Assembly (NCBI GenBank): GCA_032718475.1
Contig: JAUCBJ010006899.1
Coordinates: 1 to 64,000, forward strand
Direction: 5' to 3'
DNA length: 64,000 nt
Source: Nemertoderma westbladi
Lineage: Eukaryota > Animalia > Xenacoelomorpha
The translations under genes were made by a program, and so were the position numbers. The notes beneath the pieces were generated by a model. That model had not been told where the DNA came from. It ran no database searches and saw only the letters and a program-made list of their open reading frames with translations. Within the stretch, counting starts at the first letter, position 1. Every line of letters begins with the position of its first letter. This document shows positions 20,290 through 61,930 of the stretch, one piece after another.

Positions 20290-20570
20290 TAGGTACAGTA
20301 GGCCTATATCATATCATATCCATCAATTAATTAGTACTATAATTAATTATTATTATTATTAATTAGCAGCAACCTTGGGCAATTTAATGCCCCCGTTGTA
20401 CAATGTAGTCAACTGCTCTGCTAAACTGCACTCTAGGTAAACATCAATAAACACTGTATAGTTGCAATATACAGTAGTTAAACACCAATAAACATTGTAT
20501 AATTGCGATATAATTCAATAAACAATGTAGGCACAATTATAATAACAATAGGCAAACAATTAAACATTAA

Positions 20571-22346: not shown

Positions 22347-22387
22347 TTAATGATTTAACAAGCCCAGAGAGATGCTTCTGAGTCATG

Positions 22388-24551
22388 TGATAAACAACCG
22401 CGACCTCTATACTAACAGCAGAACTGTTGAACAGACTAATACCCGTTAATATCCTTCTGCCAACCTAGTAAGTTCTCGTCTAACCAATAAGACACAAAGA
22501 CTGCTCTACTGTTAAGTAAAGGGGCTCAGGAGCGTGATATTACTAAATTGTAAGGGTTGCTAAATACAAAACCGCTACTTACCGTTAGATGGCGCTAATC
22601 TGCCGTCCGCTAATATATTTACTAATTTTACACAACTCCTGCAAAATCGCTTGTTCCTTTCTCTACCGATTGCTCAATAGAGAGCTAACTGTTCGAATCT
22701 ATGAGCCACGCAGGAATAACCAAAACAATAAACCCGAGTCGGCTCCCTAAGCTTACTTAAGACGAGTGCGAGAGGCCTTGCACTCAGAGTATTCTTACGC
22801 CTAATTTTATCACTATTAAAGCACGCTATTACCTACGTCTTTCTAATCGCGAATACTGGGGTTTCTCTAACGTAATGTGTGAATGCGAGAATATTTAAAT
22901 ATCAAAATGGTACAGTAATTGTCTCTCGTGGATAGTACCACTCTGGGTCTACAATTGCCTGCAGCTGGCTTTAGGCCAGCAAATCACTAGCGTTTCGTGC
23001 GTACCGAATAGTGCGTTCTAGCTGATTGCCCGCTAATGCAAATAACTGCTCAGCGTGAATAGTTTACAGTACACTAATTATTACCTTAGCTACTCTCCGC
23101 TATGCTGCGTACTAATTCTTAATTTTTTACTAATTAATTACAGTCACAAATATTTAACAGCGTACTAATTACTAAGAGTTCCAGAATACGTAATTCTAAT
23201 TTATCACGCAACAGGTTTCGCTAGTAATAGCCTAAATTGCCGTATTACTTTGACCTAATCAGTAACTAATTGTTGTAACTAAGAAATAGAAACCAATCAA
23301 AGAGAAAAGAGCGCCTACCTAAACATTCACAATCATAGGCACACTTCAATAACACACCAATCAGCGTTAGAAATCACAGTTTACAATTATGCAATTCACT
23401 ACTCGTACTCCACACTCAACGTTCGAAACGTTATGATACGTGCAGGCCTCTCCCGGGTACATATAGGACTCCTAACTAACCTGATTCCCGCCCCCCTAAT
23501 ACTAAATAGAGACGAAACCTGGATCATCAGCCCCCTAATTACCGTACCGGCGATTGGTCTGCGTACCACAGCGTTAACTTCCCGACCGCAACCGTGACCC
23601 CACGCCAGCGTTGCTCGCTTTGAATCCTCCGCTCTCCCTTAGTCGCCCAACCCCCCGATGTGCCCACCGCCCGCTGGCGCCTTAGCCCTCCATTACGCTA
23701 ATAGCTACCGTAGCGGCACATGCAAATCACAAAGTCTGACAGTCTCAGAAATCCCTTAGGATTATTGCGCAGAAAAGAATCACATAGAACCATTAATCAA
23801 AGGTAGAAATCATAGTTCAATTGTAATTAGCAGTAATCGAAGGAATTATTGAGAAACACAAGCAAGTAATCGCACTAGCAAATCATTTCACGAAATTAAT
23901 CAAATTAGCAAATTGCAGAAAGTACGATATCCTAATACAAAATTAGAGACAGCTCAACAGCAGTGAGAATGTGTCATGTGAGTGAGAGATTGATGATAGG
24001 CTCTACCGGCACACCGCCAATTTATAGGTGATCCGGGTGGGATGATGCAATAGGGTGACTCAATCGCTCTCCTATTGGCTCTCCAGTCCATGCTAGCATT
24101 AGACCAACCTGGAAGCAGTTAATCCAATAAGGAGGCCGGATTGTAGCCCTATTGCTCAAATTATTACCATATATGGTAATGGATCACGTCTCTGGCTGCT
24201 GAATGGCCAGGACGGCGTCCCTATGCTAGCCCTATCAAACTAATATCAGCAAGCACAAAATCCAGGGTCCGAGTAAACTCGCTACCCTGGGACTATCTAC
24301 ATATATCCTAATACAAAATTACGTAGGTAGGGCTACATACTATACAAAATGGATGGTTTCAAATATATGGGCGTTTTGATTTCCCTACCTAAATACCACT
24401 GCGTTATTATGCCTTATCTAAAATATCATGCTGCACAACGGACTAATATTACGTACAGTATAACGGACTAATATTGCATACTGCATAACGGACTAATACT
24501 GCATACAGTATAACGACTAATAATGTGGATACAGCGCCATATACCGTAACA
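22388..24551 (-). repeat. 3' LTR of the BEL/Pao element
   Basis: Direct repeat of 39208-41371 (offset 16,820). Only four mismatches seen by eye (22952, 23047, 23593, 23718). TG...CA termini. Confidence 0.97.
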
Positions 24552-25040
24552 CCGCTCCAAGGGAAATCATATAATGTTTCCCTCCAATTGTAGAAGAGTA
24601 TAAGGTGATGTATACAAAACAAAATAAATTTCTTCCAACCAATCTAAATAACATAATAATTCTACTATTTACAAATATTGCCATAGATATTGCATAATGA
24701 ATTACATACAAATTAAATTTACAAAATATTATCTCTCTCATTGTTTAACGATTATTACATACAAATTAAATTTACAAAATATTGTTTCTCGTTCATTCTT
24801 ACTACATAATGATTACTACATACAAAATCAAATATAAAAATTTTGCTAGGGCAAGTGAAAGGAGTAAGCCAAACCCGCAGGTTTGTCTCCCCAATCACTT
24901 CCTTCGCCTCTTTCATAATATAAATTCAAATAACTCAACTAGTGTATATGAGTCTAGTCGAAGATTTTCAAATGCTACAATATACATCAGAGCGACGATG
25001 ATGTATATATCTAGAGTCTGTCGCCCTGTGCCATAATGTA

Positions 25041-26426
25041 TTATCGACCCGCTCCTGGGTTCTTTGGGCTCGCTCCTCTCTTTCGCCCCCTTCCCAGATA
25101 CACTAATCGTCCTCTAGTCGACTCCGTTGACGGCGTCCGTGAGGCGTCACTCCCCGGAACCGACGACGACGTTCCCTGAGCCCCGACAGATTCTCGGCTC
25201 GAACTTCTCCCTCGGCCTCGTCCCAATTGTCGCGCTCCCGTGGTCGCTTCCGCCAACTCTTCCTTATGCAGTTGCACACGCGCTTTCTCCGACGCCCCCT
25301 GCGCCTTGCGCTGCAACCGTTGAGCTTCTATAATTGAATGATAGTGATCGTCCTTGACTTGACGCTTGTCTTGGACCCCTCCTCCTGGTTCTTTCCGCGA
25401 GCCTTGAGCTCCAGCGGTCGTCGCTGTGGTCGCTGCGATCCTTTGTTCCTGTATCCTCTCGGCGGTCAATGAACCCACTGGCACATGAGTCAACAAGAAT
25501 TCGTTGCGGTATTGTATAGCCGCCATCCTCCAATCACCTCGCGCGCGTACCACTTTTCTAGTCTCCGTAAATACACCCTTCGTGATGCGATCGCAAATAG
25601 CAACGAAGTTCCATGTGTACTTATTGTCCATGTTCAATTGTCTGAAGTATTCTCGGACTACGATAACTCCAGTGTTTTGTGGAAGGTCTTGAGCAGTTAG
25701 GATGAGCTCCTGATATTGTGGTAGCGATTGTAGATATGGCTCGTACGCAACATGCGATGGGTCTACCGCCCAAAACCCATATCCTGCTTTAAATGGTAAC
25801 CAACGCATCTGCGCTTGAATATGGTAATCCGCCACACTCTCCCACTTATCTAACATCTCCCGAAGTAGGTTAGCGCTATGGTTTTGAAAGGAATCATCTC
25901 GCAGCTGGCATCTCGCGCTACGATGTCCCTTTACCCCACAATATCCACATTGAGAAATGAAGACGGTGCACGTGTGAAACGAATGGTCGGTCTCATTACA
26001 CCAACGACAGACCTTATGCGCCGCCTCTACTACCGCGTCGCACGACTTTAGACTGTGCCTTGTGCTGCCGCACAATTTGCACCTACGCGCTTGTGGAAAC
26101 CAGGCCCTCTCGTATATGAGGTCTCCAATCGGTTTCGCACTTCCTTCCTTCCCAATGTCTAATACGATGTCGTCCTCTCCAGTCAACGGTTGTCGATCCG
26201 GAACAAAGTAAACATCCTCGCCCTTGTCCTCTATCTCCAATATTTCCTCCCGCGTTCGTTTCGGATATGTCTTCTCCACCGGAAGATCTACTCCGAACAC
26301 CTCTACTAACGTTTCCGGCCAGCCCTCCTTAACAGGTCTATCAGCCTCCGAGTGGAAGGGAGTACCAAACCCGCGGGTTTGATTCCCGAACCACTTCTCC
26401 AAAGCTTCTGGCGTCGGATATTCCAT
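25041..26426 (-). CDS. Cargo ORF, C-terminal part: three CCHC zinc knuckles plus RG/RS-rich basic tail (461 aa)
   Basis: CKLCGSTRHSLKSC, CRWCNETDHSFHTC and CGYCGVKGHRSARC (all CX2CX4HX4C); tail LGRGRGRSSSR...LGRGRKRG. In frame with the 771-aa ORF across GAC TGA CCG TCG ATG. Confidence 0.85.
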   Translation of the reverse strand: MEYPTPEALEKWFGNQTRGFGTPFHSEADRPVKEGWPETLVEVFGVDLPVEKTYPKRTREEILEIEDKGEDVYFVPDRQPLTGEDDIVLDIGKEGSAKPIGDLIYERAWFPQARRCKLCGSTRHSLKSCDAVVEAAHKVCRWCNETDHSFHTCTVFISQCGYCGVKGHRSARCQLRDDSFQNHSANLLREMLDKWESVADYHIQAQMRWLPFKAGYGFWAVDPSHVAYEPYLQSLPQYQELILTAQDLPQNTGVIVVREYFRQLNMDNKYTWNFVAICDRITKGVFTETRKVVRARGDWRMAAIQYRNEFLLTHVPVGSLTAERIQEQRIAATTATTAGAQGSRKEPGGGVQDKRQVKDDHYHSIIEAQRLQRKAQGASEKARVQLHKEELAEATTGARQLGRGRGRSSSRESVGAQGTSSSVPGSDASRTPSTESTRGRLVYLGRGRKRGASPKNPGAGR

Positions 26427-26432
26427 CGACGG

Positions 26433-28748
26433 TCAGTCTCCCAAATCTCCGATGTTCTGTCGATATACTCCTTCGAATATCGCTAATCCTCTCCTCACCA
26501 TCGACGTATTCTCTAACGATTGGTTGAAGAACGGGGTTAAGAAACGCTTCATCACGTCGGATTGGATTCCCCCTTTCGAGCGAACGTATTGATCTCCTCC
26601 GAATACCAATGGATGACGCTTCAAAACTCGCGCAACGATATCCGCTAATAAACAAGTCACCGTGTTCGACTCAAGCACCAAATAATATTGTAGCGACGCA
26701 CGGGGTGGCGCGCAAATGTTCCAATACACTAACGCTTGCCGCTTGAAGTGGGATTTGAACTCCGCTCCCGGTGGCGTGTTGTATTCGCCATACGCCTCCT
26801 CGTACTTCTTTTGCGTCTTTAACTTAAAGTCCCAATTATACAACAAGTGTGCTATAAAGCCCATACCAGTCTTGGCAGAGTTGGGATACTCCCTATAAAT
26901 TCCAATATCCTGTGCCCATAGCAACAATAGCTTGGTGTCGACAAACGGTCTCGGCAATCTATCTTCCAGATCAGTCATGGCGTTGAAGTCACTCTCCAAA
27001 TCGCTCTGGACTCCCGATCCCACCTTGACGTAATCTTGGTTGAGAATAGCCTCTCTAACTTTCTTGGGTAACATCCTGGCGTCGATACGCTCCGCTCCGT
27101 GCATACCTCCTCGCCTGCATACCTCCAAAATCTGTTCCCTAGGATCCTTCCCCTTCCGATATTGTGTCGTTATGATGGGCTCCGGTCTCTCTCGATCCGC
27201 CCTCACACGCATAAACACATGAGTCACACCATCGGCCGCACGAATTTGAATACACTTGCTAGTCAAGCATTCCTGATGGGACCCTCCTTCATTGTCGTAG
27301 AACATCACCCTCCAATCCTGCAGTGATTCCTCCGTCTTCCTCCACCGACGCTGAATCTCGTCTGATGGGGTCCACATGCGCTCGATCGCCTTGTGGTCAT
27401 CATATCGGGTATAAGAACCCTTCCTCCTCAGCCACGTCTGGTCTACCTCCTCGTCGTCTGGGAATGTAGCCACCGCGACCCATACCTTGATGTACTTATC
27501 CAACCATCCGAATAGCTTACTCTCCTTCCCCGGAGCTCCAATCTTATCCAACGTGTCATAATCTATGATCTGCATTGGGACATCACGCAAGAACTTCGCG
27601 CATAAAACTTCCCGTAGACAGTCAACGTTCCAATGGTCCGCCATTCTTACCATCGGCAAGAATCGTATCGCTTCTCGCGACTCCGGATGATCTACTAATA
27701 TCGCAGGTTCGGTGCCGTCGGAATAATACACCGGTCCGGGTTGAGATACGACCTGTGGAACAAATCCGGTCACTCTCCTCGTCTCCTCTTGATGTCTATC
27801 CGCGGTCTTATTATACTCCGCTATCCTGTTCTCAAATAACTCTTTCGCCTTCGCCGCTCGCTCCTCCTGCCGCAACGCGTCTATGTCGTCCTGATGCTCA
27901 GGCGTGAGGCTTCTCACTCGGTGAGGTGAAGTAAACGCAGTCCAGGGACTCGAGAGCTCCAAACCCGCGGGTTTGGTACCCGAGTCCCGCGCCGCTTCGC
28001 GCCGCGCCTCTAGATCCTTATAGGCTCGGTACAGCGAAATGGCCGCTGCCGTCTCTATCAAACTGGGTGTCGAACAGGGTTTAATCTCCGTATACGGATC
28101 TAATGTCGTAACGGTCGGCGTAATGGGTCTCGGAAGTCGCTTTCCACTGAAGTCGATACTGATCATCGGGTTGCTCATCGGGTAACCTCCCTCGTTGTAT
28201 CTAAGGAATTGGTGAGCTGGACATCGCGTTAATATCGGTTCCGGATGTTGCTCGTCTAGTCGGTCGGGAATCGCCACGTCCTGTTTATTCATGCATTCAC
28301 CACACTTGTAGAAGAGCTTGTATACGCTGAAGACCTTCGGCGTCTCCTGATCCTCGCCTCGAGTCCTCCGATACAGGTGCATTCCGTCGAACTGGTCTCG
28401 GACTGCAGGTAGAGGCTCCTCATGTCGTAAATACATATTCATATGGTATAGTCGTGCGATTTCCTCGTCCGGATCTGCGCTAATGTCGCACACGACCAAA
28501 GCAAAGTCGTAGGGATACCGCGTGCGATACTCTTTCCGCAAAACTTCCATCCGGTCCCCCAACGCTCTCATTCTTTCTCTCCGTAATTCTTTATCATAAC
28601 TTGGTTTATACTTCCCGTTCAGCTCCATCACGGACCGCCCATGGTAGTAAACGTTAGAGTCTTTACATCCTGGTCGCGCGAATGGTAGCTCCGCCTCCTC
28701 TCTGGCAGTAAATCCTCTGCGCGGTTGCGCTCTAATATCCCTCTCCAT
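26433..28748 (-). CDS. Cargo ORF, N-terminal part: DEDDy (RNase D/WRN/EXD2/Mut-7-like) 3'-5' exonuclease domain after an unknown N-terminal region (771 aa)
   Basis: ExoI VMFYDNEG (27288-27296), CIQIRA, LPKKVREAIL.Q.YVKVGSGVQSD (ExoII, 27000-27026), FVDT, GMGFIAHLL...K, YW...LQYYLVLE (ExoIII YxxxD/E, 26670-26690). Order and spacing match DNA_pol_A_exo1. Confidence 0.8.
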   Translation of the reverse strand: MERDIRAQPRRGFTAREEAELPFARPGCKDSNVYYHGRSVMELNGKYKPSYDKELRRERMRALGDRMEVLRKEYRTRYPYDFALVVCDISADPDEEIARLYHMNMYLRHEEPLPAVRDQFDGMHLYRRTRGEDQETPKVFSVYKLFYKCGECMNKQDVAIPDRLDEQHPEPILTRCPAHQFLRYNEGGYPMSNPMISIDFSGKRLPRPITPTVTTLDPYTEIKPCSTPSLIETAAAISLYRAYKDLEARREAARDSGTKPAGLELSSPWTAFTSPHRVRSLTPEHQDDIDALRQEERAAKAKELFENRIAEYNKTADRHQEETRRVTGFVPQVVSQPGPVYYSDGTEPAILVDHPESREAIRFLPMVRMADHWNVDCLREVLCAKFLRDVPMQIIDYDTLDKIGAPGKESKLFGWLDKYIKVWVAVATFPDDEEVDQTWLRRKGSYTRYDDHKAIERMWTPSDEIQRRWRKTEESLQDWRVMFYDNEGGSHQECLTSKCIQIRAADGVTHVFMRVRADRERPEPIITTQYRKGKDPREQILEVCRRGGMHGAERIDARMLPKKVREAILNQDYVKVGSGVQSDLESDFNAMTDLEDRLPRPFVDTKLLLLWAQDIGIYREYPNSAKTGMGFIAHLLYNWDFKLKTQKKYEEAYGEYNTPPGAEFKSHFKRQALVYWNICAPPRASLQYYLVLESNTVTCLLADIVARVLKRHPLVFGGDQYVRSKGGIQSDVMKRFLTPFFNQSLENTSMVRRGLAIFEGVYRQNIGDLGD

Positions 28749-29509
28749 TATGCCTCGCGTATATACATATATATATATCCCAATAAGTGCCGTTACGTAA
28801 CCAACTACACTGTGGGTAAATCAGTTAGATGCCGCCGAAGGACAGACCTCCCGAACCCCCCCCCGCCTTCCAGCAGTTCAGGTTCGACTCTCTAGATCCC
28901 GTCTCTTCCTAACTAACTATCCTCTAACCTATTCCCATGCATAGCGCAAAAACTTTGGAGATAAACTGGCCGTGACCAACTCACTTTTTGATGCCCAAAC
29001 TACTCCCATTACTCCTACTAAACTACAGTAGTTAGAAAGGACCATAGCCACAATACTCGACTATACCAAACCCACAGGTTTGATAATCGAACATCACACA
29101 TCCTGCAAACTACTGAGTGGGGTCCGTGCACGCCTCTGGTGCTACTAACCTTTAGCACCCTAGTTGCACTGTTGGCACCAATCTGTGGAAGTTGCTAAAC
29201 TCAATTTACACTCCTACGTAATATAGCCGTCACCATGGTTTCTAAATGCTATTTTCCAGGCTTCACGACTTTCAAATTACTGTTTATCTATAGACGAATT
29301 CTAAAACGCGTCTATACACAGCGTCTGGAATTGTCTTGGGTTCACTTCTAATTTTTTAAAATTTTAAATTTTCCAAAAAATTTTTGAAAATAAAATTTTG
29401 TTTTGATACCCACCAGACAAAACTCAACGCAAATCACCACAACCCCGCTCCTATGCATTTCCGTGTATTTGCATACGAGGAATGCATACGAAGTGAGTTG
29501 CCTCTAACA

Positions 29510-30560
29510 CTAACTCTGTTTGGAGGCAGGAGACAAATTATAATCTCCCGTCTCGATACGTGTCTCCTCTAATAACACAATATCTTGGACCGGTCGGTCC
29601 AAGGTGTGTAAACCATTAGTTTTACACTTTTTTGGGTGCGGACACTTGCACCTAATTTTCACAGTGACTGTGCGCACTATGTTTTGCACGTCTGGGTGTG
29701 TGTGCGAGATCACTCCTGTCTCCCAATACTTTCTCTTGACAATGGGTTCGGTTATCAACACGTAATCTCCCCTTTGGAGACTCCGAACCGTTTTGTACCA
29801 CTTTGTTCTGGTAGATATGGTGGGAAGATAGTATTCCCGCCAATATTCCCAGAATGTGTACGCCACAAACTGTGTTACTTTCCAGCTTTTACGACTATAT
29901 AGGTCGGCACTAATGGGTTCTGATGCCGGCACAAGAAATGCTGGACTCTGCATTAGCAAATGATTCGGCGTTAATGCAACACCGTCTGGCAACATAGCTA
30001 TCGGACTCGAGTTTAGGGTATGCTCGATTTCAATGAAAGCTGTGACCAGTTCGTCGTCGGTAAGTTGTTTGTTCACAGGCAACGTCTTAGCAATGGCCTG
30101 CTTTACAGAGCGAACTAAACGCTCCCAACTTCCTCCTCTCCAAGGACTCTCTGGAGTATTGAATCTCCATTCTACTCGTTGCGGCAAAAGTGCTGCAGAA
30201 ATTTCCTTATTCTGTGCTACTTTATGAGCCGCATTCAACTCGCTATTCCCTCCGACAAAGTTTGTACCCTTGTCAGAGTAGAACGCCTTTACTAGTCCTC
30301 TCCTGGCCATAAATCTCTTCAAGGCCAGGAGCAGAGATTTGGTCGACATGTCTGCCACACGCTCGATATGTATGGCTCTACTAGCCATACATGTCAGTAG
30401 CAGACCCCATCGCTTGTGGGTCAGCCGTCCACTCTGCTTCAATCGGACCAAAACAATCCACCCCTGTGTTCGTAAAGGGTGGGTCATATGCCTGCACTCT
30501 CGCTTCCGGGAGTTCAGCCATCTCCTGTTCCAATACTCTGGTGTTCACCCTCTTGCAAAC
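29510..30560 (-). CDS. BEL/Pao integrase core and C-terminal (DUF5641-like) region, frameshifted from pol
   Basis: CLVCK..EMAELPEARV..PFTNTGVDCFGP (frame between the listed ORFs), TCMASRAIHIE, YSDKGTNFVG, PWRGGSWERLV, LTPNHLL, FW..W..YYL....RTKW. Two frameshifts near 30565 and 30440. Confidence 0.92.
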
Positions 30561-33500
30561 CAGACAGGCGTCGTACTGCCCTGCTTGGCTGCAATAGAAT
30601 GAATCGCTGTCTCGCTGCCGACAGACAGTGTAACTTTCCCGCGTGATGCAACCTCTTGTGTATATCCCATAGAATCGCTCTTTGCAATTCCATCGGGTAA
30701 CTAGGGATTATCACTGGGAATCGAAACTGTGAGTTTATGTCGACAGTCTGGATTCTCGATCTATGACAAATCAAACCCTTATGGATTAATGGACTCCATT
30801 TTCTAAGGGGTTTATAGAGAACTGGTCGTTGAGCCGATAATAGATGGAATTCTTTAGGGAAGGCACACATTTGATAATGTTTCAAATGCTTTAATTCCGC
30901 TTGATCAATCTCATCCTCCGTCAGAGGTTGTTTCAATTTCCGAATTCGCTCACTATTGGTGCTCAATGGTTCTCTCAAATGTTTCGAATATTTTATACAA
31001 AGGTACGAAACGTATCGGCTTAACCACGCAGTTCTTTTACAAATTGTCAGCCAAGAGGCAGACGAATTTAGTAATTTGTCATAAACACTGCATGACTCTA
31101 ATGCCAGCGACGGTTGTCCGCTAACCAATGGAAGTTTCGAATCCAAACCCGCAGGTTTGGAAACCAAAGACTCCATTTTGTCGGTCATTTTCTGTCCGTC
31201 ACTTACCAACTGTGACTCCGGTTTAGTCTGTAAGGGTGGTTTTACGTCATAACTTACCCTTCCAGACCTAGTAGTCACGTAAGTCTGTTGGTCTGACAGG
31301 TCTCCGGGCCGCTCCAATAACTCTTCAGGCCGCTCTAATGACTCTTCAGGCCGCTCCAATGACTTAAGTTTGGCTTTAGACTTCGACTTAGAGACTTTCT
31401 CCACTTTGACTTCTGCATCTTCAGGCATCGGATTGGTCACTATCTTTAGTCGCTCTGGCCAATGTTCCTGTGTCCTCGTTAGAAAATCAGGTCCATGCAA
31501 CCAAAACTCCTGCGACTCTTCCTGACAGAATTCCGCCGGCATTGCACCTCTCGAAGTTATGTCGGCCGGGTTCAACACTCCCGGACAATGTCTCCATTGT
31601 TCCTTCGTCGAAAAGTCGACGATCTGAGCGCGTCTATTGGCCACAAATGTCTTTAGTGCAATATTGTCGGCCGCAATGTATACTAACACCAAGGATGCGT
31701 CCGTCCAATAGAATAAGGTCAATGTCGTGTCTAACTCCTCAGTTATTTGCTTACTTACCTCGACCGAAACTACAGCCGCCTGTAACTCTGCACGAGGGAC
31801 AGTCATGTATTTGACCGGCATTGTCTTTGATCTAGAAGTCACAAAGGCCGTCTCAAATTTGTCCTGACTTACCTCTCGGCGAAGGTAGGCTACCATACCA
31901 AAGCCGGTGTCACTTGCGTCACTGAACAGATGCCGCTCTAAATCAGTTGGAAATACCAGCTGATTCGGAAAGTAGGAACGGGGTACATCTATATTTTTCA
32001 ACAGATGCAACTCGGCTTCCCACTCCCTCCACTGCTTTGCATGTATAGGAGATATTGGTTCGTCCCACTCTAAGTCGGACAACCAAATTTTCCTCATGCA
32101 CGCTCGTGCCTGTAATATAACCGGACTGATAAAGTTCATCGGGTCAAATAGTCTACTTAATGTCGATAAGCAAATCCTCTTTGTCAAAACTTTGTCTGGG
32201 CTACTGGGCTCAAATCTAACTCTTACCTGGAACTTATCCGAATTCGGATTCCAAGCGAGTCCCAGTACTCGCGCCATGGGGATTGGTTCTACCCCCAATT
32301 CTATGTCTCCGCTCCCGCGATCCTTTACCGGGAACGATTCTAATAGGGCCTCCGAGTTAGTAGTGAACTTGGTCAGAGGAAATCCCCCTGTAGCCAAGCA
32401 CTCTTGCAGGCCGTGAGCCACTTCTATGGCTTGTTCCGCCGTGTCCTTGGACACCAAGCCGTCGTCCATATAGAAGTTTCTCAAGATAGACTCGATTACT
32501 TCTACTGGATACTTACCAATCTGGGCTGTTGCCGTTTTCTTTAGAACGAACAGCGTGCCATTCGGACTATCGCGGGCGCCAAATATCCTAACGTACATTT
32601 GGTATGTAACCACTGGGCCGGATAAGTCTTCATTCTCAAACCAGAGAAAGCGAAGGCTATCCTGGTCTGCCTTACAGGCTCTTACCTGGTGGAACATCGC
32701 CTCGATGTCACAAGTAAATGCGAATCGCCGCTGTCTAAAACGCAACAGTATTCCAATCAAATAGTTATTCAGGTTGGGACCATCCATCAACTCTGAATTC
32801 AGGGACATACCTCTATAGACTGCTGCGCAGTCGTTGACTACTCGGACTTTGTCTGGCTTGTCGGGGTGAGTCACATAGTGGTGTGGAAGGTAATAAGTCT
32901 GGTCTGTCACTAAGTCAGGGTCCTCTACCTTCCCAGCAAATCCCTTGGCGAAATAGTTGTTGATCTGGGCGCAATACTTCTCCCTAATGTCCGGATTCTT
33001 CAACAACCGAGCCCTTACTCCGTTTAATCTTTTCAAGGCTAAGCTGTAGTTGTTCTCCAACTTAGGTGGTTGTCGACGCCACAACATTCCAACTTCAAAA
33101 TGTCCAGTCGGTAGCAGACGTATGGTGTCTTCCATCATCTCCAACGACCGTTTCTCATCAGTAGACATGGCTAGGTCATATCCACCGGGTTCCATTGCGT
33201 CCCTATCCAGCCATTCGACAGTTCTGGCTCCTGTCTCGAGGTCCTGGCGTATCAATTCCTTCTGTAATTCCTCCTCACTGTATTGGAAAATGTCTAGGTC
33301 TCGATATTTAGCCGCTTGACCCTCCACTATGTCTGTATAAGTCAAAACGTTAGTCAGATAAGTAGCGTGGGCCGCTGAACCAGACCCACGGGTCTGATAA
33401 CAGTAGTCCTCGGGTTCACTATCTGTCCGGTCGTTATGAAGTGGTTCCGACAACCTAACATTATCGGGAATCAACTCCTCGTCCGACTCGCTAAAGTCAC

Positions 33501-36459
33501 TATAGTGGTCAATACAGGTTCTCCTAAACTCGTCTATGTCTGGTGGTTCTACTAACGGTGGTTGAGTTATAGGCTGTAATTCGTCGTATCTGTCCATTGG
33601 CTTGTCGCCACCTGTAAACTCATAAGACATGGGTACTCTTGTATACCAACCTAGTATGGTCCTATGGGCATGTGGTCCATTGACATGCGGCTCAGCCGGT
33701 CTCGTTTCCCATATCTGGTGTGCGATCAGCTGTTCTGCACCAATCAACATAGAAACATTCCTATAACCTACCTGGTGTCTCGGTATCCTGAGCTTGTCAA
33801 AATACTCCTGTGCTATGGGACTCATCGGCGGCACCTTACCTAACTGCCTGCCGAATCCCTTCATAGCTAGACACTTAAATCCGTCCAATGGCAAAGCTTT
33901 CCGTTCTTGTCGAGTGTGTTGGTCTCTCGGAAGTAGGGAATCTAGTTCTACCGAAATTCTGTGTCCCTTGAGGTCTCCTACCCCATGCATAGACTTCAAC
34001 TCTATTTGGATCTCCTCGGCGTCCTGGAAGCTAGAAACAGCTCTCGCCACTTCCTCGTCGATATAGGATAATGTGGACGCAGTGTCCAACATCACATATA
34101 TTCGCTTCGATCCCTTATCGCCAGTGAGTTTCACCGGAATCACGCTAAATATTTCCGACGTGGCCGATGATAAATACGTCCGCGCGCTGGTCGATGAACT
34201 ATCCGCGGTGAAACCTTGGCAGGTCACTTCTCTCGCGCTCGACTCGCCATCCTCGTCCGACGAACCTGGTTGGTAACCATCGTCCTGAATGCCGGTGTAC
34301 ATATTCCTTCTTATCGATACGGGTTCTTTGCTCCCCTTCCTGTGAGGATTTCGCTGTAAGTAACGGTCCGTTGGGGTATGGAAATCCGCATGTAGCAACT
34401 TGTGATGTAGTCTGCCGCATTCCATGCATCCGTCCTTGCTGTTCGGGCACTGCCGCCGTACATGTCCTGGCGCAAGACATGCCCAACAGGTGTCCAACGT
34501 CCGCACTTGAACTCTTCTCTGTTCCGAATTTAATTCCTTGAACCGTCTGCAACTATCCAACTTATGGTCGTCAGATCTTACCTCCTTTAGTAAACAGTAT
34601 TGGCAACCTACAAATCCATCCGGCAACTCCTGTTGCTTTAACCTAGGTCTATCTAACCGCTCACCTGACCATACTCGCGAGTCTGATCTAAAGGCTGGGG
34701 TATTCGAATTATATCTGTCTACTGAGTTATAAGTCACAGTGGTCCTGTCATCGTCAAAACTTACCATAGACTTACCGGTAACAGGTTTAGACTCCCTCAT
34801 ATTCTCCTCTGAGAAGTTTGATTTCATCTCTGCTACTGCGTCTGTGGCTATCATGTCATGAATATGCTGAAGTGTCAATACCTTACCTTGGCCCTCCAAC
34901 TTATTCTCTAATTTGCGCCATTTCTGTCGATAACGCATGTTTAAACGTCTTATTACGCTCTTTAAAACTTCGGCGTGATCACCATGATGAGGTAGATTCA
35001 CCGTCTTCAAGATGTCCAATGCGTTCGAAATAGCGTTCGCTAAGTTCAACAGCTCTAACGGAGTTGTAATCCTTCCGCCCTTACCCAAGTCTTCTACTAT
35101 CGACTGCGCCATTTTCGTTTTATTCCCGTAGATGTCGCTAAGCGTCTTCATCGCTAATTCGAATGCCCGTTCATTGCCGACGAAGTTATCAGCAATGGCT
35201 CTAGGTTCTCGATGGAGCATCTGAAGCAAATAGTTGAACTTCTCGTTGGGAGTAAAGGTGCTGTTGGTTAGCTGCTCGTCGACATAGGTTTTGAAGGTCC
35301 TCCAATGCTTATGGTTACCCATAAACTTCTGGGGTTGTTGCGTCGGCAGTCCTTGCCTAGCAGCAAACTTACCTATGTCCCTAAGGGTTGCGTCGTTCCG
35401 GGTTAACAAATGGTTTAGTTCCGCAGGGTTGTTAAGTCTGGTCCTTTCCCGGTGGTTCCAACTTACCTGCTCCGCGTCCGTCCTTCTTTCCTTATAGTTT
35501 CGGGACTTCTGACGTCTCATTTCTTCCTCTTCATCGCTTGACTCGGTGTCAGTCCTTAGCGCTCGCGATGGTTTGCGCGCCGAGGCCCTGACCCAAGCTT
35601 CCTCAATAAATCTTTCCGCCGAATTTTCGAAATTGGGATTATGGATATTCGGGACAGGCGTCCTTACCTGAGGTCTATGTGGTATAGTCTCCTCCGATAT
35701 ACGTACTCGTTGACTAGGCTGGACTTTATCTAATTCAGGCCTGCTGGGATTTGAATTACTTCTTACCTGGGCTGCTTCCTTTAACCGTAGGTTGCTAAGC
35801 ATGTCCGTTATAGGTTGGATGTGCGGCGATATAGCTTGCGCTAAACTAGCACTTAACTCATCTCTCGTAATAAATTCCTGGCTAGGGTTCTGTTGTATAG
35901 TCGGCTCTATCTGAGTAATCCGCTGTCTCTCATATGATCCCTCTTCCGGTTTAACCCGGAAGTTCTCCGTCGAACTGGGTCGGCGCTCCGTCCGCGTATT
36001 CCAAACCCGCGGGTTCGGTTCGCCAAGTACTCGTCCTGTCGGAGTTTCTCTAAACTCTCCGTTGTCGCGTTCGGTGTATAGTGGTGCGGTGTTCCGATGA
36101 CGTAGATCCTGGGCGATGGGTGAAGCACTAATACCAACTGGCGTGCGATATGTAGAGAACGGTTTAGCGATCCGTGTACTCGTAATAGCTGGACCGGGTA
36201 TAGGAATTCTGGTCGTCGTCGACTCGCGTATAGTCGGAGTTCTCGCTTCCTGTTCGGCCTTCTGCAGTGCGAACAGTTCTCGCAACTCAGTCCCTACACT
36301 CGCCCCACATTCTTCGATCATTCGCATCCCCTTCTCGGCGATTTCGTTCGCCTTCCTAGTCCGTTCTTCGCTCTCTAAACTTAATCTCGCACTTTCCAAC
36401 TGCGCCAGTTTACGTTCTTCTTCTTCCCTCGCTCGTCTCGCTGCGCCCTCTTCTTCCAC
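30514..36459 (-). CDS. BEL/Pao gag-pol: DUF1759 gag, three Zn knuckles, protease, RT, RNase H, integrase N-terminus
   Basis: QKFMGNHKHWRTF..EKFNYL; CQYC..HKLDSC, CWACLAPGHVRRQC, CMECGRLHHKLLH; MLDTAST; YYLPHH, KVRVVND, GPNL, DIEAMFHQV, LRFLW, FYMDD; FSDAS, PRAELQA, WTD, NPAD.SRG; IHKRLHHAG. Confidence 0.97.
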   Translation of the reverse strand: MEEEGAARRAREEEERKLAQLESARLSLESEERTRKANEIAEKGMRMIEECGASVGTELRELFALQKAEQEARTPTIRESTTTRIPIPGPAITSTRIAKPFSTYRTPVGISASPIAQDLRHRNTAPLYTERDNGEFRETPTGRVLGEPNPRVWNTRTERRPSSTENFRVKPEEGSYERQRITQIEPTIQQNPSQEFITRDELSASLAQAISPHIQPITDMLSNLRLKEAAQVRSNSNPSRPELDKVQPSQRVRISEETIPHRPQVRTPVPNIHNPNFENSAERFIEEAWVRASARKPSRALRTDTESSDEEEEMRRQKSRNYKERRTDAEQVSWNHRERTRLNNPAELNHLLTRNDATLRDIGKFAARQGLPTQQPQKFMGNHKHWRTFKTYVDEQLTNSTFTPNEKFNYLLQMLHREPRAIADNFVGNERAFELAMKTLSDIYGNKTKMAQSIVEDLGKGGRITTPLELLNLANAISNALDILKTVNLPHHGDHAEVLKSVIRRLNMRYRQKWRKLENKLEGQGKVLTLQHIHDMIATDAVAEMKSNFSEENMRESKPVTGKSMVSFDDDRTTVTYNSVDRYNSNTPAFRSDSRVWSGERLDRPRLKQQELPDGFVGCQYCLLKEVRSDDHKLDSCRRFKELNSEQRRVQVRTLDTCWACLAPGHVRRQCPNSKDGCMECGRLHHKLLHADFHTPTDRYLQRNPHRKGSKEPVSIRRNMYTGIQDDGYQPGSSDEDGESSAREVTCQGFTADSSSTSARTYLSSATSEIFSVIPVKLTGDKGSKRIYVMLDTASTLSYIDEEVARAVSSFQDAEEIQIELKSMHGVGDLKGHRISVELDSLLPRDQHTRQERKALPLDGFKCLAMKGFGRQLGKVPPMSPIAQEYFDKLRIPRHQVGYRNVSMLIGAEQLIAHQIWETRPAEPHVNGPHAHRTILGWYTRVPMSYEFTGGDKPMDRYDELQPITQPPLVEPPDIDEFRRTCIDHYSDFSESDEELIPDNVRLSEPLHNDRTDSEPEDYCYQTRGSGSAAHATYLTNVLTYTDIVEGQAAKYRDLDIFQYSEEELQKELIRQDLETGARTVEWLDRDAMEPGGYDLAMSTDEKRSLEMMEDTIRLLPTGHFEVGMLWRRQPPKLENNYSLALKRLNGVRARLLKNPDIREKYCAQINNYFAKGFAGKVEDPDLVTDQTYYLPHHYVTHPDKPDKVRVVNDCAAVYRGMSLNSELMDGPNLNNYLIGILLRFRQRRFAFTCDIEAMFHQVRACKADQDSLRFLWFENEDLSGPVVTYQMYVRIFGARDSPNGTLFVLKKTATAQIGKYPVEVIESILRNFYMDDGLVSKDTAEQAIEVAHGLQECLATGGFPLTKFTTNSEALLESFPVKDRGSGDIELGVEPIPMARVLGLAWNPNSDKFQVRVRFEPSSPDKVLTKRICLSTLSRLFDPMNFISPVILQARACMRKIWLSDLEWDEPISPIHAKQWREWEAELHLLKNIDVPRSYFPNQLVFPTDLERHLFSDASDTGFGMVAYLRREVSQDKFETAFVTSRSKTMPVKYMTVPRAELQAAVVSVEVSKQITEELDTTLTLFYWTDASLVLVYIAADNIALKTFVANRRAQIVDFSTKEQWRHCPGVLNPADITSRGAMPAEFCQEESQEFWLHGPDFLTRTQEHWPERLKIVTNPMPEDAEVKVEKVSKSKSKAKLKSLERPEESLERPEELLERPGDLSDQQTYVTTRSGRVSYDVKPPLQTKPESQLVSDGQKMTDKMESLVSKPAGLDSKLPLVSGQPSLALESCSVYDKLLNSSASWLTICKRTAWLSRYVSYLCIKYSKHLREPLSTNSERIRKLKQPLTEDEIDQAELKHLKHYQMCAFPKEFHLLSAQRPVLYKPLRKWSPLIHKGLICHRSRIQTVDINSQFRFPVIIPSYPMELQRAILWDIHKRLHHAGKLHCLSAARQRFILLQPSRAVRRLSGLQEGEHQSIGTGDG

Positions 36460-37911
36460 TCACGACCTTTCTTCATACAATGCGCGTCTTCTTTTCTCGA
36501 TCTCGAGTTCGCGTTCCTTGCGTCCGCGTTCAAGTTGAAGCTCGCGCTCCTTCTGTTCACGATCGAGTTTCTTGCGCTCGCGTTCGGCTTGGAGTTCGCG
36601 TTTCTTCGCTTCCTGTTCGCGTTCGAGTTGGAGTTCGCGTTTCTTCGCTTCCCGCTCGCATTCAAGTTGGAGTTCGCGTTCTCTCTGTTCGCGTTCGAGT
36701 TCCTCGCGCTCGCGCTCGGCTTGGAGTTCGCGTTCCCTTTGCTCGCGTTCCGCTCGCTCGCGCTTACTTATCTCTTCCAACTCTCGTAACTCTGCGTCAA
36801 ACTTACGTGTGCGCTCCCGTTCCCGCTCGGCTTCCTTCCGTGCTTCCTGTGCACGCAAAACTTCCGCCTGCTGTTCGTCTAGTCGGCGTCTTCTCTCCTC
36901 CGCCGAGTTGTGAGAAACAAGGGATCTAGCACATATTACCTTACCTCGCGTGTGACTAACCTGGGAATCGCCGCTGTCTCTAGATGCATCGTCGGGTGGA
37001 GTTAACGTCCTCTGTTGGATGTTCTCCGTCGTCGGTAGCACCTGGCCTGGTACCACCACTCCATTCTGCATCAGCCAGCTAGTAACTTCCCTCTGATAAC
37101 GGCGCTCTTCCTTATCTTGGATCTCTTCCCGCTCCACTAAGTCTCTTAACTCTGCGTCACTCACCTGAGTCGCCTGCGCTTGTGATGCCCATAGCAGCCA
37201 GTTCTCCGTCCTAACTCGTCGGAATCGCTCCGATAACTCGCGGTGCTCTAACAAGGCTGCTAAAACCCTGTCGTAAATCCTCGTCGCCACGTCGCTTGAC
37301 TGAGACTCCACTGCCTTCTTCGCTAGGACTGCAAGCTCCTCCGTCTGCTTGAATAACGCTGAGTTATATCCTCTTCTAATCTCTGCTAACTCTACCCTCC
37401 CGATGTTCGCTGGGTCAGCTAACATCTTCCTTACCTTGTCCGCCGTCCGAGTTATATGTCCGGCATGCGCGCGAAGTTTCTTCTTTATCGCGATATCGAA
37501 CTCTCTATCACTCACCTGACTTACGCTCGGTGGACTTGAAGGATTATTTCGGGAACTACGGGTACTCCTTACAGCCGTCGGGACCACGGCACTTACCATA
37601 CCCACAGGTCTGGAAACCGGGCTCCGGGCTCTCGCTTCTGCTACACTACCCTCCCTATCACTCACCTCTGTCCGGGCTGCTGTGCAGTCCTTCCTTACAG
37701 TAGCGGTAGGGGATCCTAATACTATTACTTGAGGTTGTTGTTCTTCCTCACTAGTCACTGTCTCGTCCTCCTGTTCACTTACGTCAGCGTCGCTCGCTGC
37801 GTCGTCATAGTCGGCATTGTCATCAACAGTAATGTTTACGCTATCGTCAGTCGGCGGTCCAGCCGCCGTCTCGTAGCTGTCCTCTAGTGCCTCTTTGTCT
37901 GAGACACTCAT
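36460..37911 (-). CDS. N-terminal gag extension (acidic, helical, E/R coiled-coil repeats), in frame with gag-pol across one TGA
   Basis: First ATG at 37911 (MSVSDKEALE). The stop TGA at 36460-36462 is followed directly by GTG GAA in the same frame (EERS*VEEE). Confidence 0.8.
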   Translation of the reverse strand: MSVSDKEALEDSYETAAGPPTDDSVNITVDDNADYDDAASDADVSEQEDETVTSEEEQQPQVIVLGSPTATVRKDCTAARTEVSDREGSVAEARARSPVSRPVGMVSAVVPTAVRSTRSSRNNPSSPPSVSQVSDREFDIAIKKKLRAHAGHITRTADKVRKMLADPANIGRVELAEIRRGYNSALFKQTEELAVLAKKAVESQSSDVATRIYDRVLAALLEHRELSERFRRVRTENWLLWASQAQATQVSDAELRDLVEREEIQDKEERRYQREVTSWLMQNGVVVPGQVLPTTENIQQRTLTPPDDASRDSGDSQVSHTRGKVICARSLVSHNSAEERRRRLDEQQAEVLRAQEARKEAERERERTRKFDAELRELEEISKRERAEREQRERELQAEREREELEREQRERELQLECEREAKKRELQLEREQEAKKRELQAERERKKLDREQKERELQLERGRKERELEIEKRRRALYEERS

Positions 37912-39207
37912 AGTCCAAATAATATTTGCCTTCCGGCAAAAATCTCTCGCAAAGTTCGAGATATAATTATAATTTAACCGAAATACGGTCAAATTATTTG
38001 TCAAATAATCAGTTGGTCCAAAATGTCAAAATAAATTCGCAATGCAATATTGCGAATTTAATGGGGTATATAGTTATAGCAAATACTAGCACAATATTTA
38101 AACAAAATATTATTATATAGCTACTATATAATATTAAATACCGGTATAGCACAAAATAACTCTGAATCTAATACAAAATATTCAAAATAAACTTGCCGCC
38201 CGAATATTTCTAATTTTATATATAGCTCTAATCAACGTAATTTTAGTTTCAAATATTATATGTATCCACTAGCGCGTGGCTACATCTTCGGGTTGCGACT
38301 CTCTCTAACTCTCTCTCTAACTTGAGCGATTCAAAACCATGGCCGGCTAAACCTAAATATCCTAACTAATAAATTGAGTTCAGCTTCGCAGTTAAACAAC
38401 CGATAATTTTTTACTGCTTCCACAAACACACCGGCGCCAACAGAACAACTAACCTTGTTTGCTGTGAGATTCCACGTCCGCGTCCAAAGATTCAGGCCCT
38501 TCGCTGATTGCAAACCGAACCCGCAGACCCACACGAACCCCAAACTCAGAAGTCCCGTCTTGCCATGTATCTCCAGATGGTATAAAATAACTAAGCGGTT
38601 ACCTAACATACCGTTACAAAACTCTAGAATTTTACAAATAATTTTGACCGAAACTGAATTCTCGCAAACCTAGCTAATAATTTTCAAAAAACTTACTAAT
38701 TACAGTTTGCCCTAAGGCCTAAGGAACTGCTGTATTCGCAATTAGCAAAACGCACTACCGTACATCCACTGTATGCAGTACAGTAAGTAAAACAGTACAC
38801 CAACCTAACAGCCTAATGATACTGTGTGTGGTACGGCAAACAAATGTCCTTCTACCGTACGCAGTAACAGCAATCAGCCTAATGTACTACTGTACTAGTG
38901 TACGCAGCCAGTGAATACAGTAATATAAACTAACAGCCTAAAGGAATATACTCAATGTTCTACCGTACGCTAGCCTATAGCCTACAGCAGACGATCACGT
39001 GCTCCAATTTATTGCCTAATACTATGATACTACTATCAGCCTAAGAATACTCTATCTGCCTTACTGTACGCAGTACAGCAAAGCAATACAGCACGTATCA
39101 CTGATACAAAGTATCAGTGATCTAAACTAACAGTAGTCTAAACTAACAGCCTAAGAATACTCTATTTACTGTACGCTACAGCCTACAGCAAACAAAACAC
39201 GTATCAC

Positions 39208-41371
39208 TGATAAACAACCGCGACCTCTATACTAACAGCAGAACTGTTGAACAGACTAATACCCGTTAATATCCTTCTGCCAACCTAGTAAGTTCTCGTC
39301 TAACCAATAAGACACAAAGACTGCTCTACTGTTAAGTAAAGGGGCTCAGGAGCGTGATATTACTAAATTGTAAGGGTTGCTAAATACAAAACCGCTACTT
39401 ACCGTTAGATGGCGCTAATCTGCCGTCCGCTAATATATTTACTAATTTTACACAACTCCTGCAAAATCGCTTGTTCCTTTCTCTACCGATTGCTCAATAG
39501 AGAGCTAACTGTTCGAATCTATGAGCCACGCAGGAATAACCAAAACAATAAACCCGAGTCGGCTCCCTAAGCTTACTTAAGACGAGTGCGAGAGGCCTTG
39601 CACTCAGAGTATTCTTACGCCTAATTTTATCACTATTAAAGCACGCTATTACCTACGTCTTTCTAATCGCGAATACTGGGGTTTCTCTAACGTAATGTGT
39701 GAATGCGAGAATATTTAAATATCAAAATGGTACAGTAATTGTCTCTCGTGGATAGTACCACTCTGGGTCTAAAATTGCCTGCAGCTGGCTTTAGGCCAGC
39801 AAATCACTAGCGTTTCGTGCGTACCGAATAGTGCGTTCTAGCTGATTGCCCGCTAATGCAAATAACCGCTCAGCGTGAATAGTTTACAGTACACTAATTA
39901 TTACCTTAGCTACTCTCCGCTATGCTGCGTACTAATTCTTAATTTTTTACTAATTAATTACAGTCACAAATATTTAACAGCGTACTAATTACTAAGAGTT
40001 CCAGAATACGTAATTCTAATTTATCACGCAACAGGTTTCGCTAGTAATAGCCTAAATTGCCGTATTACTTTGACCTAATCAGTAACTAATTGTTGTAACT
40101 AAGAAATAGAAACCAATCAAAGAGAAAAGAGCGCCTACCTAAACATTCACAATCATAGGCACACTTCAATAACACACCAATCAGCGTTAGAAATCACAGT
40201 TTACAATTATGCAATTCACTACTCGTACTCCACACTCAACGTTCGAAACGTTATGATACGTGCAGGCCTCTCCCGGGTACATATAGGACTCCTAACTAAC
40301 CTGATTCCCGCCCCCCTAATACTAAATAGAGACGAAACCTGGATCATCAGCCCCCTAATTACCGTACCGGCGATTGGTCTGCGTACCACAGCGTTAACTT
40401 CCCGACCGCAACGGTGACCCCACGCCAGCGTTGCTCGCTTTGAATCCTCCGCTCTCCCTTAGTCGCCCAACCCCCCGATGTGCCCACCGCCCGCTGGCGC
40501 CTTAGCCCTCCATTACGCTAATAGCTACCGTAGCGGCGCATGCAAATCACAAAGTCTGACAGTCTCAGAAATCCCTTAGGATTATTGCGCAGAAAAGAAT
40601 CACATAGAACCATTAATCAAAGGTAGAAATCATAGTTCAATTGTAATTAGCAGTAATCGAAGGAATTATTGAGAAACACAAGCAAGTAATCGCACTAGCA
40701 AATCATTTCACGAAATTAATCAAATTAGCAAATTGCAGAAAGTACGATATCCTAATACAAAATTAGAGACAGCTCAACAGCAGTGAGAATGTGTCATGTG
40801 AGTGAGAGATTGATGATAGGCTCTACCGGCACACCGCCAATTTATAGGTGATCCGGGTGGGATGATGCAATAGGGTGACTCAATCGCTCTCCTATTGGCT
40901 CTCCAGTCCATGCTAGCATTAGACCAACCTGGAAGCAGTTAATCCAATAAGGAGGCCGGATTGTAGCCCTATTGCTCAAATTATTACCATATATGGTAAT
41001 GGATCACGTCTCTGGCTGCTGAATGGCCAGGACGGCGTCCCTATGCTAGCCCTATCAAACTAATATCAGCAAGCACAAAATCCAGGGTCCGAGTAAACTC
41101 GCTACCCTGGGACTATCTACATATATCCTAATACAAAATTACGTAGGTAGGGCTACATACTATACAAAATGGATGGTTTCAAATATATGGGCGTTTTGAT
41201 TTCCCTACCTAAATACCACTGCGTTATTATGCCTTATCTAAAATATCATGCTGCACAACGGACTAATATTACGTACAGTATAACGGACTAATATTGCATA
41301 CTGCATAACGGACTAATACTGCATACAGTATAACGACTAATAATGTGGATACAGCGCCATATACCGTAACA
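39208..41371 (-). repeat. 5' LTR of the BEL/Pao element
   Basis: Direct repeat of 22388-24551, followed by TSD TCATG. Carries three to four ~25-bp tandem units (AACGGACTAATA) near its U3 start. Confidence 0.97.
40836..41000 (-). promoter_or_regulatory. Putative LTR promoter: CArG box in an 18-bp palindrome, CCAAT boxes, TATAAA
   Basis: ATTACCATATATGGTAAT at 40983-41000 (CCATATATGG fits CC(A/T)6GG); minus-strand TATAAA at 40841-40846. Both are conserved in the diverged solo LTR (19347-19364 and ~19208-19213). Confidence 0.55.
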
Positions 41372-41599
41372 TCATGCTTGACCTGGGGTAGGTTTTTAGC
41401 AGTTTTAATTTAGAAAATGACCGTTCTGCTGTAATTTTCAATTCAATTTCAATTTCAATCCGGGATAGGCCCGGGCCTTTAATTTCGGAAGTTCACCTTT
41501 CGACATCTTATATATTGCAAAAAACCCAACACCAAAGGTCACCATAAAATGTTTAAGGTTGATCAGTATTTATTCATGAATGTGGGTGATATGATAGGC

Positions 41600-58641: not shown

Positions 58642-58789
58642 ATTTCAGGGTGACGAATTTTTTAAAATACCAATTATATTTTAAAATAAGACATTAACAA
58701 ATGTGGTAATTAGCATACAAGTACATAGTCATTCATTATTTATTCATTGTATGTGGTTGGTTATTATTATCAAATGTTATTGTGATATA

Positions 58790-61670: not shown

Positions 61671-61680
61671 CATTAATCAA

Positions 61681-61930
61681 GTGAATATAAATATTGTAGT
61701 AAGGCTACATACATGAGACACTAAAAAATATCTTAGCACCTTCATGGTTTGAGGATTGAACATATTTATAATACAGGTGGCTAGGTTGCTAAAAACTACA
61801 GTATTTAAATAGTATATTAGTACAGAAAATATAAACTATAATTAATTAAATTACAGAATGCATGAATAAGGGTTGCATTAAAACCGAATATTAGCAGAAA
61901 AGTAGCTAGCTCTATTTTAAGTGACTGAGT
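61681..61930 (+). repeat. Inverted, internally deleted copy of the Penelope-like 3' end (inverted pLTR)
   Basis: 61681-61756 is the reverse complement of ~59477-59547, and 61757-61930 is the reverse complement of ~58835-58985. Confidence 0.8.

Follow-up and report, generated by a model that had tools for sequence, protein, structure and literature searches.

What is a predicted 3′-5′ exonuclease, joined to zinc knuckles, doing in the env position of an animal retrotransposon? The question is raised by a long terminal repeat (LTR) element of Nemertoderma westbladi, which runs on the minus strand from 41371 to 22388 (18,984 bp) of the window analyzed here, namely the first 64,000 nt of contig JAUCBJ010006899.1, and which carries downstream of pol a third open reading frame, ORF3 (Table 1). 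We suggest that ORF3 belongs to a multi-copy BEL/Pao family as an accessory gene, and that it would encode a 3′-5′ exonuclease of predicted WRN/EXD2-type fold followed by three zinc knuckles. The identity of the ORF3 domains is very probable, and the nuclease is probably catalytically active. As to function, we favor a knuckle-guided 3′-5′ ribonuclease that would act on the element's own RNA during replication, a reading to which our analysis gives a probability of about 0.4.

Pfam, NCBIfam and PHROGs gave no meaningful match in ORF3, and the nuclease was recognized by profile and structure comparisons. A profile restricted to the exonuclease part (eight rows) matched EXD2 at 4.8e-5, WRN at 0.014 and Egalitarian at 0.17, and a profile made from five relatives, with the window protein excluded, found EXD2 at 0.0055. 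In the ESM Atlas, residues 430–771 lay near a DNA_pol_A_exo1 cluster with 154 shared features at a value of 0.90, which equals the threshold and is a borderline lead. An AlphaFold2 (AF2) model of the nuclease domain, built from the eight-row alignment, had a predicted local distance difference test score (pLDDT) of 67 and a predicted template modeling score (pTM) of 0.67; AF2 on the single sequence was uninformative (pLDDT 33). With the former model, Foldseek placed EXD2 at the top (7.9e-4) as the sole match to pass E≤0.001, and below it NrnC, polymerase I exonucleases, RICE1, Egalitarian, Rrp6, Nibbler and TbRND. Against 48,161 chains, each of the 50 rows listed by VIA was either a DEDD nuclease or a polymerase that has a DnaQ-like domain, and the leading group was tied at Z 10.5–11.7 with root-mean-square deviations (rmsd) of 3.1–4.5 Å over 152–174 residues. 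This comparison included Nibbler (Z 11.0, rmsd 3.7 Å, 169 residues), WRN (10.9, 3.1 Å, 153), RNase D (10.5, 4.2 Å, 159) and TbRND (9.9, 4.1 Å, 172), as well as family-A polymerase exonucleases (Z 11.0–11.1), Exd1 (Z 10.5) and Egalitarian (Z 9.2).

On the model, an RNase H-like DnaQ (DEDD) exonuclease fold for residues 460–735 is secure. A DEDD-type fold of the WRN/EXD2/Nibbler kind, on which the original prediction had been staked beforehand, was thus recovered by profile, Foldseek and VIA alike. The modeled fold does not settle the nearest DEDD subfamily, nor RNA versus DNA as the substrate, because exonucleases of DNA polymerases and diDNases are among the entries with tied top Z-scores. EXD2, WRN, Egalitarian and Nibbler are the best sequence and structure matches of the domain, but they share only 10–15% identity with it in structural alignments and are host genes without the knuckle module. 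A match to rotavirus VP4 (0.01) in a single-sequence PDB search was discarded as chance, given the fold results.

The putative active site has the motifs that had been named beforehand (DxE, KVG.GV..D and YxxxE), with ExoI as D485-N-E487, ExoII as K575-VGSGVQS-D583 and ExoIII as Y689-LVL-E693. Both the window protein and all six aligned relatives that cover the region retain the ExoI D-x-E, D583 of ExoII follows VGS and is invariant in seven aligned rows, and ExoIII has an acid in all eight rows, with identities of 16–24%. The register that puts D485 and E487 at ExoI was returned by 10 of 12 MAFFT settings and scores 9.7 as an ungapped block, the next offset scoring 4.7, and both results disfavor the alternative register. 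The favored register implies an insertion of ~40 residues after strand 3, where one of the relatives, P0009, has one too, and in the AF2 model a strand at model residues 22–28 leads to the ExoI D-x-E at the end of strand 1. If no gap is introduced, D485 falls on what we take to be the ExoI Asp of DnaQ, ISG20, phi29, T7 and RB69, which is a matter of consistency, not proof. At ExoIII, Y689-x3-E693 stands in place of the Y-x3-D of DEDDy enzymes, and EXD2, WRN and Egalitarian all have the canonical Asp. The original prediction had remarked on this Asp-to-Glu change, which is indeed present but is not a one-off: P0004 and P0010 share the Glu (two of seven aligned relatives), and the other five have Asp. 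On this alignment the window nuclease reads as a DEDE-y variant and not as a canonical DEDDy enzyme, with the ExoIII Glu as a sub-family trait.

The three CX2CX4HX4C knuckles and the RG/RS tail were likewise found as described, the knuckles starting at residues 890, 914 and 934 and matching Lin28, TbRND (1.7e-4) and nucleocapsid knuckles by profile, and the tail holding five RG and three RS/SR after residue 1140. For relatives, ORF3 residues 1–1050, the break being written as X, were compared with 1,835,955,588 cluster representatives at E≤0.001. Eight passed, with lengths of 514–727 amino acids (aa) and identities of 25–32%, none exceeding 32%. All eight align, in a single frame, over the nuclease-like part, the three knuckles and a domain of ~65 residues behind the knuckles, and their best stretches fall in residues 557–722 or 833–1038, none in the first 459. 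P0008 is without the ExoI region; in P0003 the nuclease is degenerate, and the module of knuckles and domain is present in two copies. Because eight distant relatives carry both parts in one frame, we consider the fusion of nuclease and knuckles to be old. The relatives are encoded on contigs of 2.5–13 kb, only one of them carries a name ("hypothetical protein"), and Pfam gives only weak sub-threshold matches to them, mostly to the knuckles; they define a protein family invisible to Pfam, and with it a new small domain. A ninth, partial relative (L001), on a 2.4-kb metagenome contig without pol, has the knuckle module and the domain at 487–852 and is truncated on its 5′ side. Searching 5.8 billion proteins by word index gave no further relative among the best ~8,000 candidates (the last returned the known P0009), which is weak evidence. 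The N-terminal region has no relative among the cluster representatives, none in Pfam, NCBIfam or PHROGs, and no usable ESM Atlas match for residues 1–450.

The original prediction had described a sense-strand frame of ~1,235 codons between integrase and the 3′ LTR. Its position and sense hold, with the ATG 761 bp past the pol stop and the end 489 bp short of the 3′ LTR, but it is not a single open frame: a TGA at codon 772 leaves 771 codons, which hold the nuclease, and 463 behind it, which hold the knuckles. A stop within the frame of gag and two integrase frameshifts had been overlooked too, and the window copy thus has four lesions, two stops and two frameshifts. It is a defective copy, since gag, integrase and ORF3 are all broken; the nuclease domain and the downstream piece with the knuckles and the post-knuckle domain are each unbroken. 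For the codon-772 stop a lesion is the likeliest reading, because the nuclease–knuckle fusion is old and the relatives carry it in one frame. Programmed readthrough, by which the TGA would be common to the family and would yield a short nuclease and, less often, a nuclease–knuckle product, and which would be compatible with any function, appears quite unlikely to us. The TGA does sit in the linker between the domains and is followed by C, UGA followed by C being a leaky stop context, and the 463 codons beyond it remain open. On the other hand, all eight relatives are continuous across the linker, the RNA 3′ of the TGA folds no better than shuffled sequences (z −0.87) and so offers no readthrough stem-loop beyond chance, and the copy has three other lesions, of which the gag stop is absent from other copies, as all depth at position 36462 in runs X1, X3 and X5 differs from the window copy. 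Codon 772 is not among the variant rows listed for sister copies. We also observe that four lesions stand beside only four LTR mismatches, which could mean that the copy was mobilized in trans while already defective, or that some of the lesions are assembly errors.

Six public runs from four studies contain the stretch or part of it, and four of them were aligned to 24552–38500. In X1 and X3, 22,718 and 9,883 contigs aligned, and 30 of 30 bins were covered, including all of ORF3; some contigs skip parts of ORF3. Because every ORF3 bin is covered by contigs of X1 and X3, we regard ORF3 as a regular part of a multi-copy family, and intact sister copies would make one continuous protein from it. 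Variation was read from the best-supported 40 of 673 variant rows, 20 of them in ORF3, the sites not being independent. As had been expected of sister copies under constraint, the listed segregating sites of ORF3 are mostly synonymous (12 synonymous and 4 non-synonymous, n=16). Outside the tail, 10 of the 11 listed are synonymous, against an expected fraction of ~0.30 under the observed transition bias (p 5e-5), and in the N-terminal region four of five. At four listed ORF3 sites the window copy itself departs from nearly all others, once synonymously and three times non-synonymously. We take this as a hint that the family is under purifying selection and that the window copy has decayed, and not as a ratio of non-synonymous to synonymous rates (dN/dS), because the rows were picked by the tool, the sites are non-independent and the boundary between core and tail was set after the data had been viewed. 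The same data bear on the idea that ORF3 is a one-off capture of a host gene, now a neutral passenger. The eight relatives could be host genes, and L001 has no pol on its contig. Yet the full coverage of ORF3 in X1 and X3 and the mostly synonymous listed variants largely refute such a capture, and no relative exceeds 32% identity, though a recent capture would likely leave one that does; we consider this explanation highly improbable.

By its sequence the carrier of ORF3 is an element of the BEL/Pao type, as originally predicted. Pfam matches in gag-pol are to DUF1759 (1.5e-9), Peptidase_A17 (4e-38) and DUF5641 (1.8e-17), with none to RVT_1, and the protease DTAS, reverse transcriptase (RT) YMDD and integrase motifs are in the BEL/Pao order of protease, then RT, then RNase H, then integrase (PR-RT-RH-IN). 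The element also has the TG...CA ends and the short target duplication of BEL/Pao (Belpaoviridae). The insertion is recent, since the LTRs, of 2,164 bp each, differ at four positions only and the TG...CA ends and the 5-bp duplication on either side are present. In its order of LTR, gag, pol, ORF3 and LTR, and in its BEL/Pao Pfam domains, it resembles Belpaoviridae with an env-like ORF3 as presented in the text retrieved from two sources (PMC8742986; PMC3118150). In contrast to these, its ORF3 is not envelope-like: no transmembrane segment or signal peptide was found in the whole of ORF3, in line with the original prediction, the best 19-residue Kyte-Doolittle mean being 1.34. Nor was a standard primer site found in this copy, where in Belpaoviridae an 18-nt site for tRNA-Arg or tRNA-Gly is expected behind the 5′ LTR. 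The size of the element differs too, as the ICTV profile gives 4.2–10 kb for the elements and 0.2–1.2 kb for the LTRs of the family (PMC8742986), so that this one, at ~19 kb and with LTRs of 2.16 kb, has roughly double the greatest length given there. The CpG observed/expected ratio is 1.0–1.2 across the element (22388–41371), that is without depletion, and the flanks are depleted (0.54 and 0.77). In Gag, a long Arg/Glu-rich repeat, likely a coiled coil, precedes the capsid region (36800–36460, minus strand).

Precedents exist outside BEL/Pao. According to the text retrieved from PMC5408684, a DEDDy ORF3 occurs in the bdelloid LTR retrotransposons Juno and Vesta and in Athena/Terminon, with a DEED motif and undemonstrated activity, and RNA 3′-end processing or silencing have been put forward as hypotheses for it; the rotifer ORF is repeated in excerpts of three reviews (PMC6431247, PMC5718144, PMC6338049). 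The original prediction had named this precedent correctly. It had also named one in Cer1, which we could not trace: "cer1" occurs 0 times in the retrieved text of PMC5408684, and it appears neither in that of PMC13269885 nor in the titles or abstract openings of 12 papers. As in Juno, Vesta and Athena, the ORF3 described here is a DnaQ-like 3′-5′ exonuclease frame after pol, without transmembrane or envelope features and with one tetrad residue swapped between Asp and Glu. Unlike it, those elements are not described as BEL/Pao in the excerpts ("pao" is found once, as an author name, in PMC5408684), the motif is DEED there and DEDE here, and, in a comparison by description only, neither an array of knuckles in ORF3 nor a post-knuckle domain or long N-terminus is mentioned for them. 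The literature searched holds no BEL/Pao exonuclease ORF (Repbase, GyDB, subscription journals and supplements were outside the search), "exonuclease" has 0 occurrences in the retrieved text of a BEL/Pao survey (PMC3118150), and within this scope the earlier statement that no such exonuclease–knuckle fusion was known in BEL/Pao stands. New here are the occurrence in the BEL/Pao superfamily, a DEDE variant that resembles WRN/EXD2, its fusion to a knuckle module that includes an unnamed domain, and the hint of selection. Accessory nucleases were proposed from the rotifer elements in 2017, and the present case extends the theme to BEL/Pao and to a predicted RNA-gripping module.

The closest likeness in layout is offered by TbRND (PDB 7C42), in which a DEDD-type nuclease is followed by CCHC fingers that grip RNA and boost trimming many-fold, and in which deletion of the zinc-finger domain sharply lowers RNA binding and cleavage (PMC7797062, excerpts). 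TbRND differs in being a cellular protein of ~350 aa with four fingers near the nuclease, while ORF3 has three knuckles ~150 aa away and extra domains, and the shared layout may be convergent because the sequence match covers the knuckles only. By analogy with the TbRND fingers, the ORF3 knuckles and the post-knuckle domain could bind single-stranded RNA and present its 3′ end to the nuclease, and the substrate could lie within the element's own RNA–protein complex, for example a non-standard primer or the end of the genomic RNA. We assign this substrate class only tentatively. We favor it because selection at the level of the copy would be expected to reward functions that help the copy itself, because the knuckles are of the nucleocapsid type, and because the leader starts with hairpins and no standard tRNA primer site was found beside it. 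Within 200 nt after the 5′ LTR of this one defective copy, no primer site that starts with TGG was found (the first TGG is at +202; the host tRNA set was not compared), and the start of the leader (39240–39080) folds at z −3.78 into strong hairpins. No Rfam family and no tRNA was found within the element. The motif at the junction of LTR and leader recurs ~100 nt into the leader as a hairpin (39207–39080, minus strand), and the 9 nt right after the 5′ LTR are complementary to LTR position 1110, which could be chance.

Several points weigh against a knuckle-guided ribonuclease acting on the element's own RNA. The nearest matches by sequence, EXD2 and WRN, have DNA among their substrates as well. 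Two of the 12 MAFFT settings and two other alignments slide ExoI (by ~30 residues in the latter), which would put non-acidic residues there and make for a dead site, and the AF2 model is not independent on this question because it was built on the favored register. ExoIII has Glu in place of Asp. Without readthrough of its stop the window copy cannot produce the fusion, the selection count rests on 20 of 673 variant rows, tool-picked and with a post-hoc tail boundary, and the missing primer site is an observation on a single defective copy. Finally, intact motifs do not prove catalysis, because Egalitarian needs none of its DEDDy residues: it keeps all five, and mutating them leaves RNA binding and function intact (bioRxiv 10.1101/2025.08.03.668247, excerpts).

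Since Egalitarian retains catalytic residues without needing them, a non-catalytic role has to be taken seriously. Here the nuclease fold, the knuckles and the tail would bind element RNA and route or shield it, like Egalitarian and EXD1, with the 459-residue N-terminus as an effector. Egalitarian is matched both by sequence and by structure, Exd1 by structure, and the former binds the localization signal of the I-factor retrotransposon with no catalytic residue needed (bioRxiv 10.1101/2025.08.03.668247, excerpts). The ExoIII Glu would also suit an adaptor, as would P0003, which has lost the nuclease motifs and duplicated the knuckle module. The ExoI D-x-E and the ExoIII acid, kept across such distant relatives, are more easily explained by catalysis, and we hold an adaptor to be unlikely.

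A catalytic protein could also be turned against the host. As a counter-silencing ribonuclease, ORF3 would degrade or mis-trim the PIWI-interacting RNAs (piRNAs) or small interfering RNAs (siRNAs) that target the element, or their precursors. Mature piRNAs have 2′-O-methyl ends that block many such enzymes, and a trans-acting suppressor would help defective copies too, so that weaker selection would be expected. The small-RNA trimmer Nibbler and TbRND are among the structural neighbors, but Z-scores within 1 are tied and the neighbors include DNA polymerase exonucleases and diDNases. The family is abundant, as the contig numbers in two runs indicate, and overexpression of TbRND, in which a nuclease is likewise joined to CCHC fingers, depletes guide RNAs (PMC7797062, excerpts). 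We find a counter-silencing role rather unlikely. The same holds for a broader proposal, according to which an old ribonuclease module of nuclease, triple knuckle and post-knuckle domain would circulate among animal retroelements and would serve BEL/Pao either in destroying silencing small RNAs or in making a non-tRNA primer; if true, BEL/Pao would have an accessory enzyme function that the literature searched does not describe for it. The unbroken nuclease domain makes the question testable: do animal retrotransposons carry enzymes against small-RNA silencing, or for the processing of their own RNA?

The size of the element suggests one more function, in which the nuclease would edit DNA and proofread an oversized genome by removing mismatched or non-templated 3′ bases from the cDNA, like nidovirus ExoN. 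A length of 19 kb in a family of 4.2–10 kb elements (PMC8742986) would fit, and family-A polymerase exonucleases are equally close in structure. However, ORF3 is a separate frame outside Pol and is tied to knuckles of an RNA-binding type, no exonuclease is named among the extra domains of the 16–30 kb Ogre and Burro elements in the retrieved text of PMC6431247, and the variant spectrum of the relatives is strongly transition-rich, with no obvious extra fidelity, though this is a weak point. The proofreading idea of the original prediction found no specific support, and we regard it as very doubtful.

Table 1. Features of the BEL/Pao element and of ORF3 in the window.
Feature	Position	Strand	Remarks
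Target-site duplication, 5′ side, 5 bp	41372..41376	-	
5′ LTR, 2,164 bp, TG...CA	39208..41371	-	4 mismatches vs 3′ LTR
Leader, 1.3 kb, hairpin-rich start, without TGG-starting tRNA primer site beside LTR	37912..39207	-	
gag-pol, broken in the window copy: knuckle-bearing Gag, protease DTAS, RT YMDD, RNase H region, integrase	29510..37911	-	motifs and Pfam
In-frame gag stop	36460..36462	-	differs in other copies
Integrase N-terminal region, two frameshifts, zinc-binding CxxC in third frame	30381..30707	-	
ORF3, env position, 1,235 codons including one internal stop	25041..28748	-	ATG 28748, TAA 25041
ORF3 N-terminal region, aa 1–459, contains CxxC...CxxH	27372..28748	-	no relatives found
Predicted exonuclease region, aa 460–735	26544..27371	-	profile searches, model, structure aligners
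In-frame TGA, codon 772, linker between nuclease and knuckles	26433..26435	-	
Three CX2CX4HX4C zinc knuckles, aa 890–947	25908..26081	-	motif; profile matches
Unnamed conserved post-knuckle domain, ~aa 960–1022, ~65 residues	25683..25871	-	aligned in 8/8 relatives and L001
Low-complexity RG/RS-bearing tail	25044..25328	-	3/5 listed segregating sites non-synonymous
3′ LTR, 2,164 bp	22388..24551	-	
Target-site duplication, 3′ side, 5 bp	22383..22387	-	

The surroundings of the element are rich in other repeats. An older LTR of a sister family (19710–17815, minus strand), 72–87% identical in four blocks and in the same orientation, lies 2.7 kb past the 3′ LTR and fades out beside an RT fragment of a long interspersed nuclear element (LINE) at 17064–17768. 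A second repeat family, with internal repeats of 35 bp and ~163 bp, is present at 20567–22353 and 59682–61190; the LTR element ends just beside one of its copies, and the other is found inside nested inverted repeats (58782–61990). On the plus strand there are a frame with a weak C2H2 zinc-finger match (44645–45547), a LINE endonuclease piece (45699–46433), a piece of a Harbinger-type DDE transposase (48757–49563) and an intronless frame of 358 codons (57565–58641) with a Pfam match to Tetraspanin at 1.1e-12.

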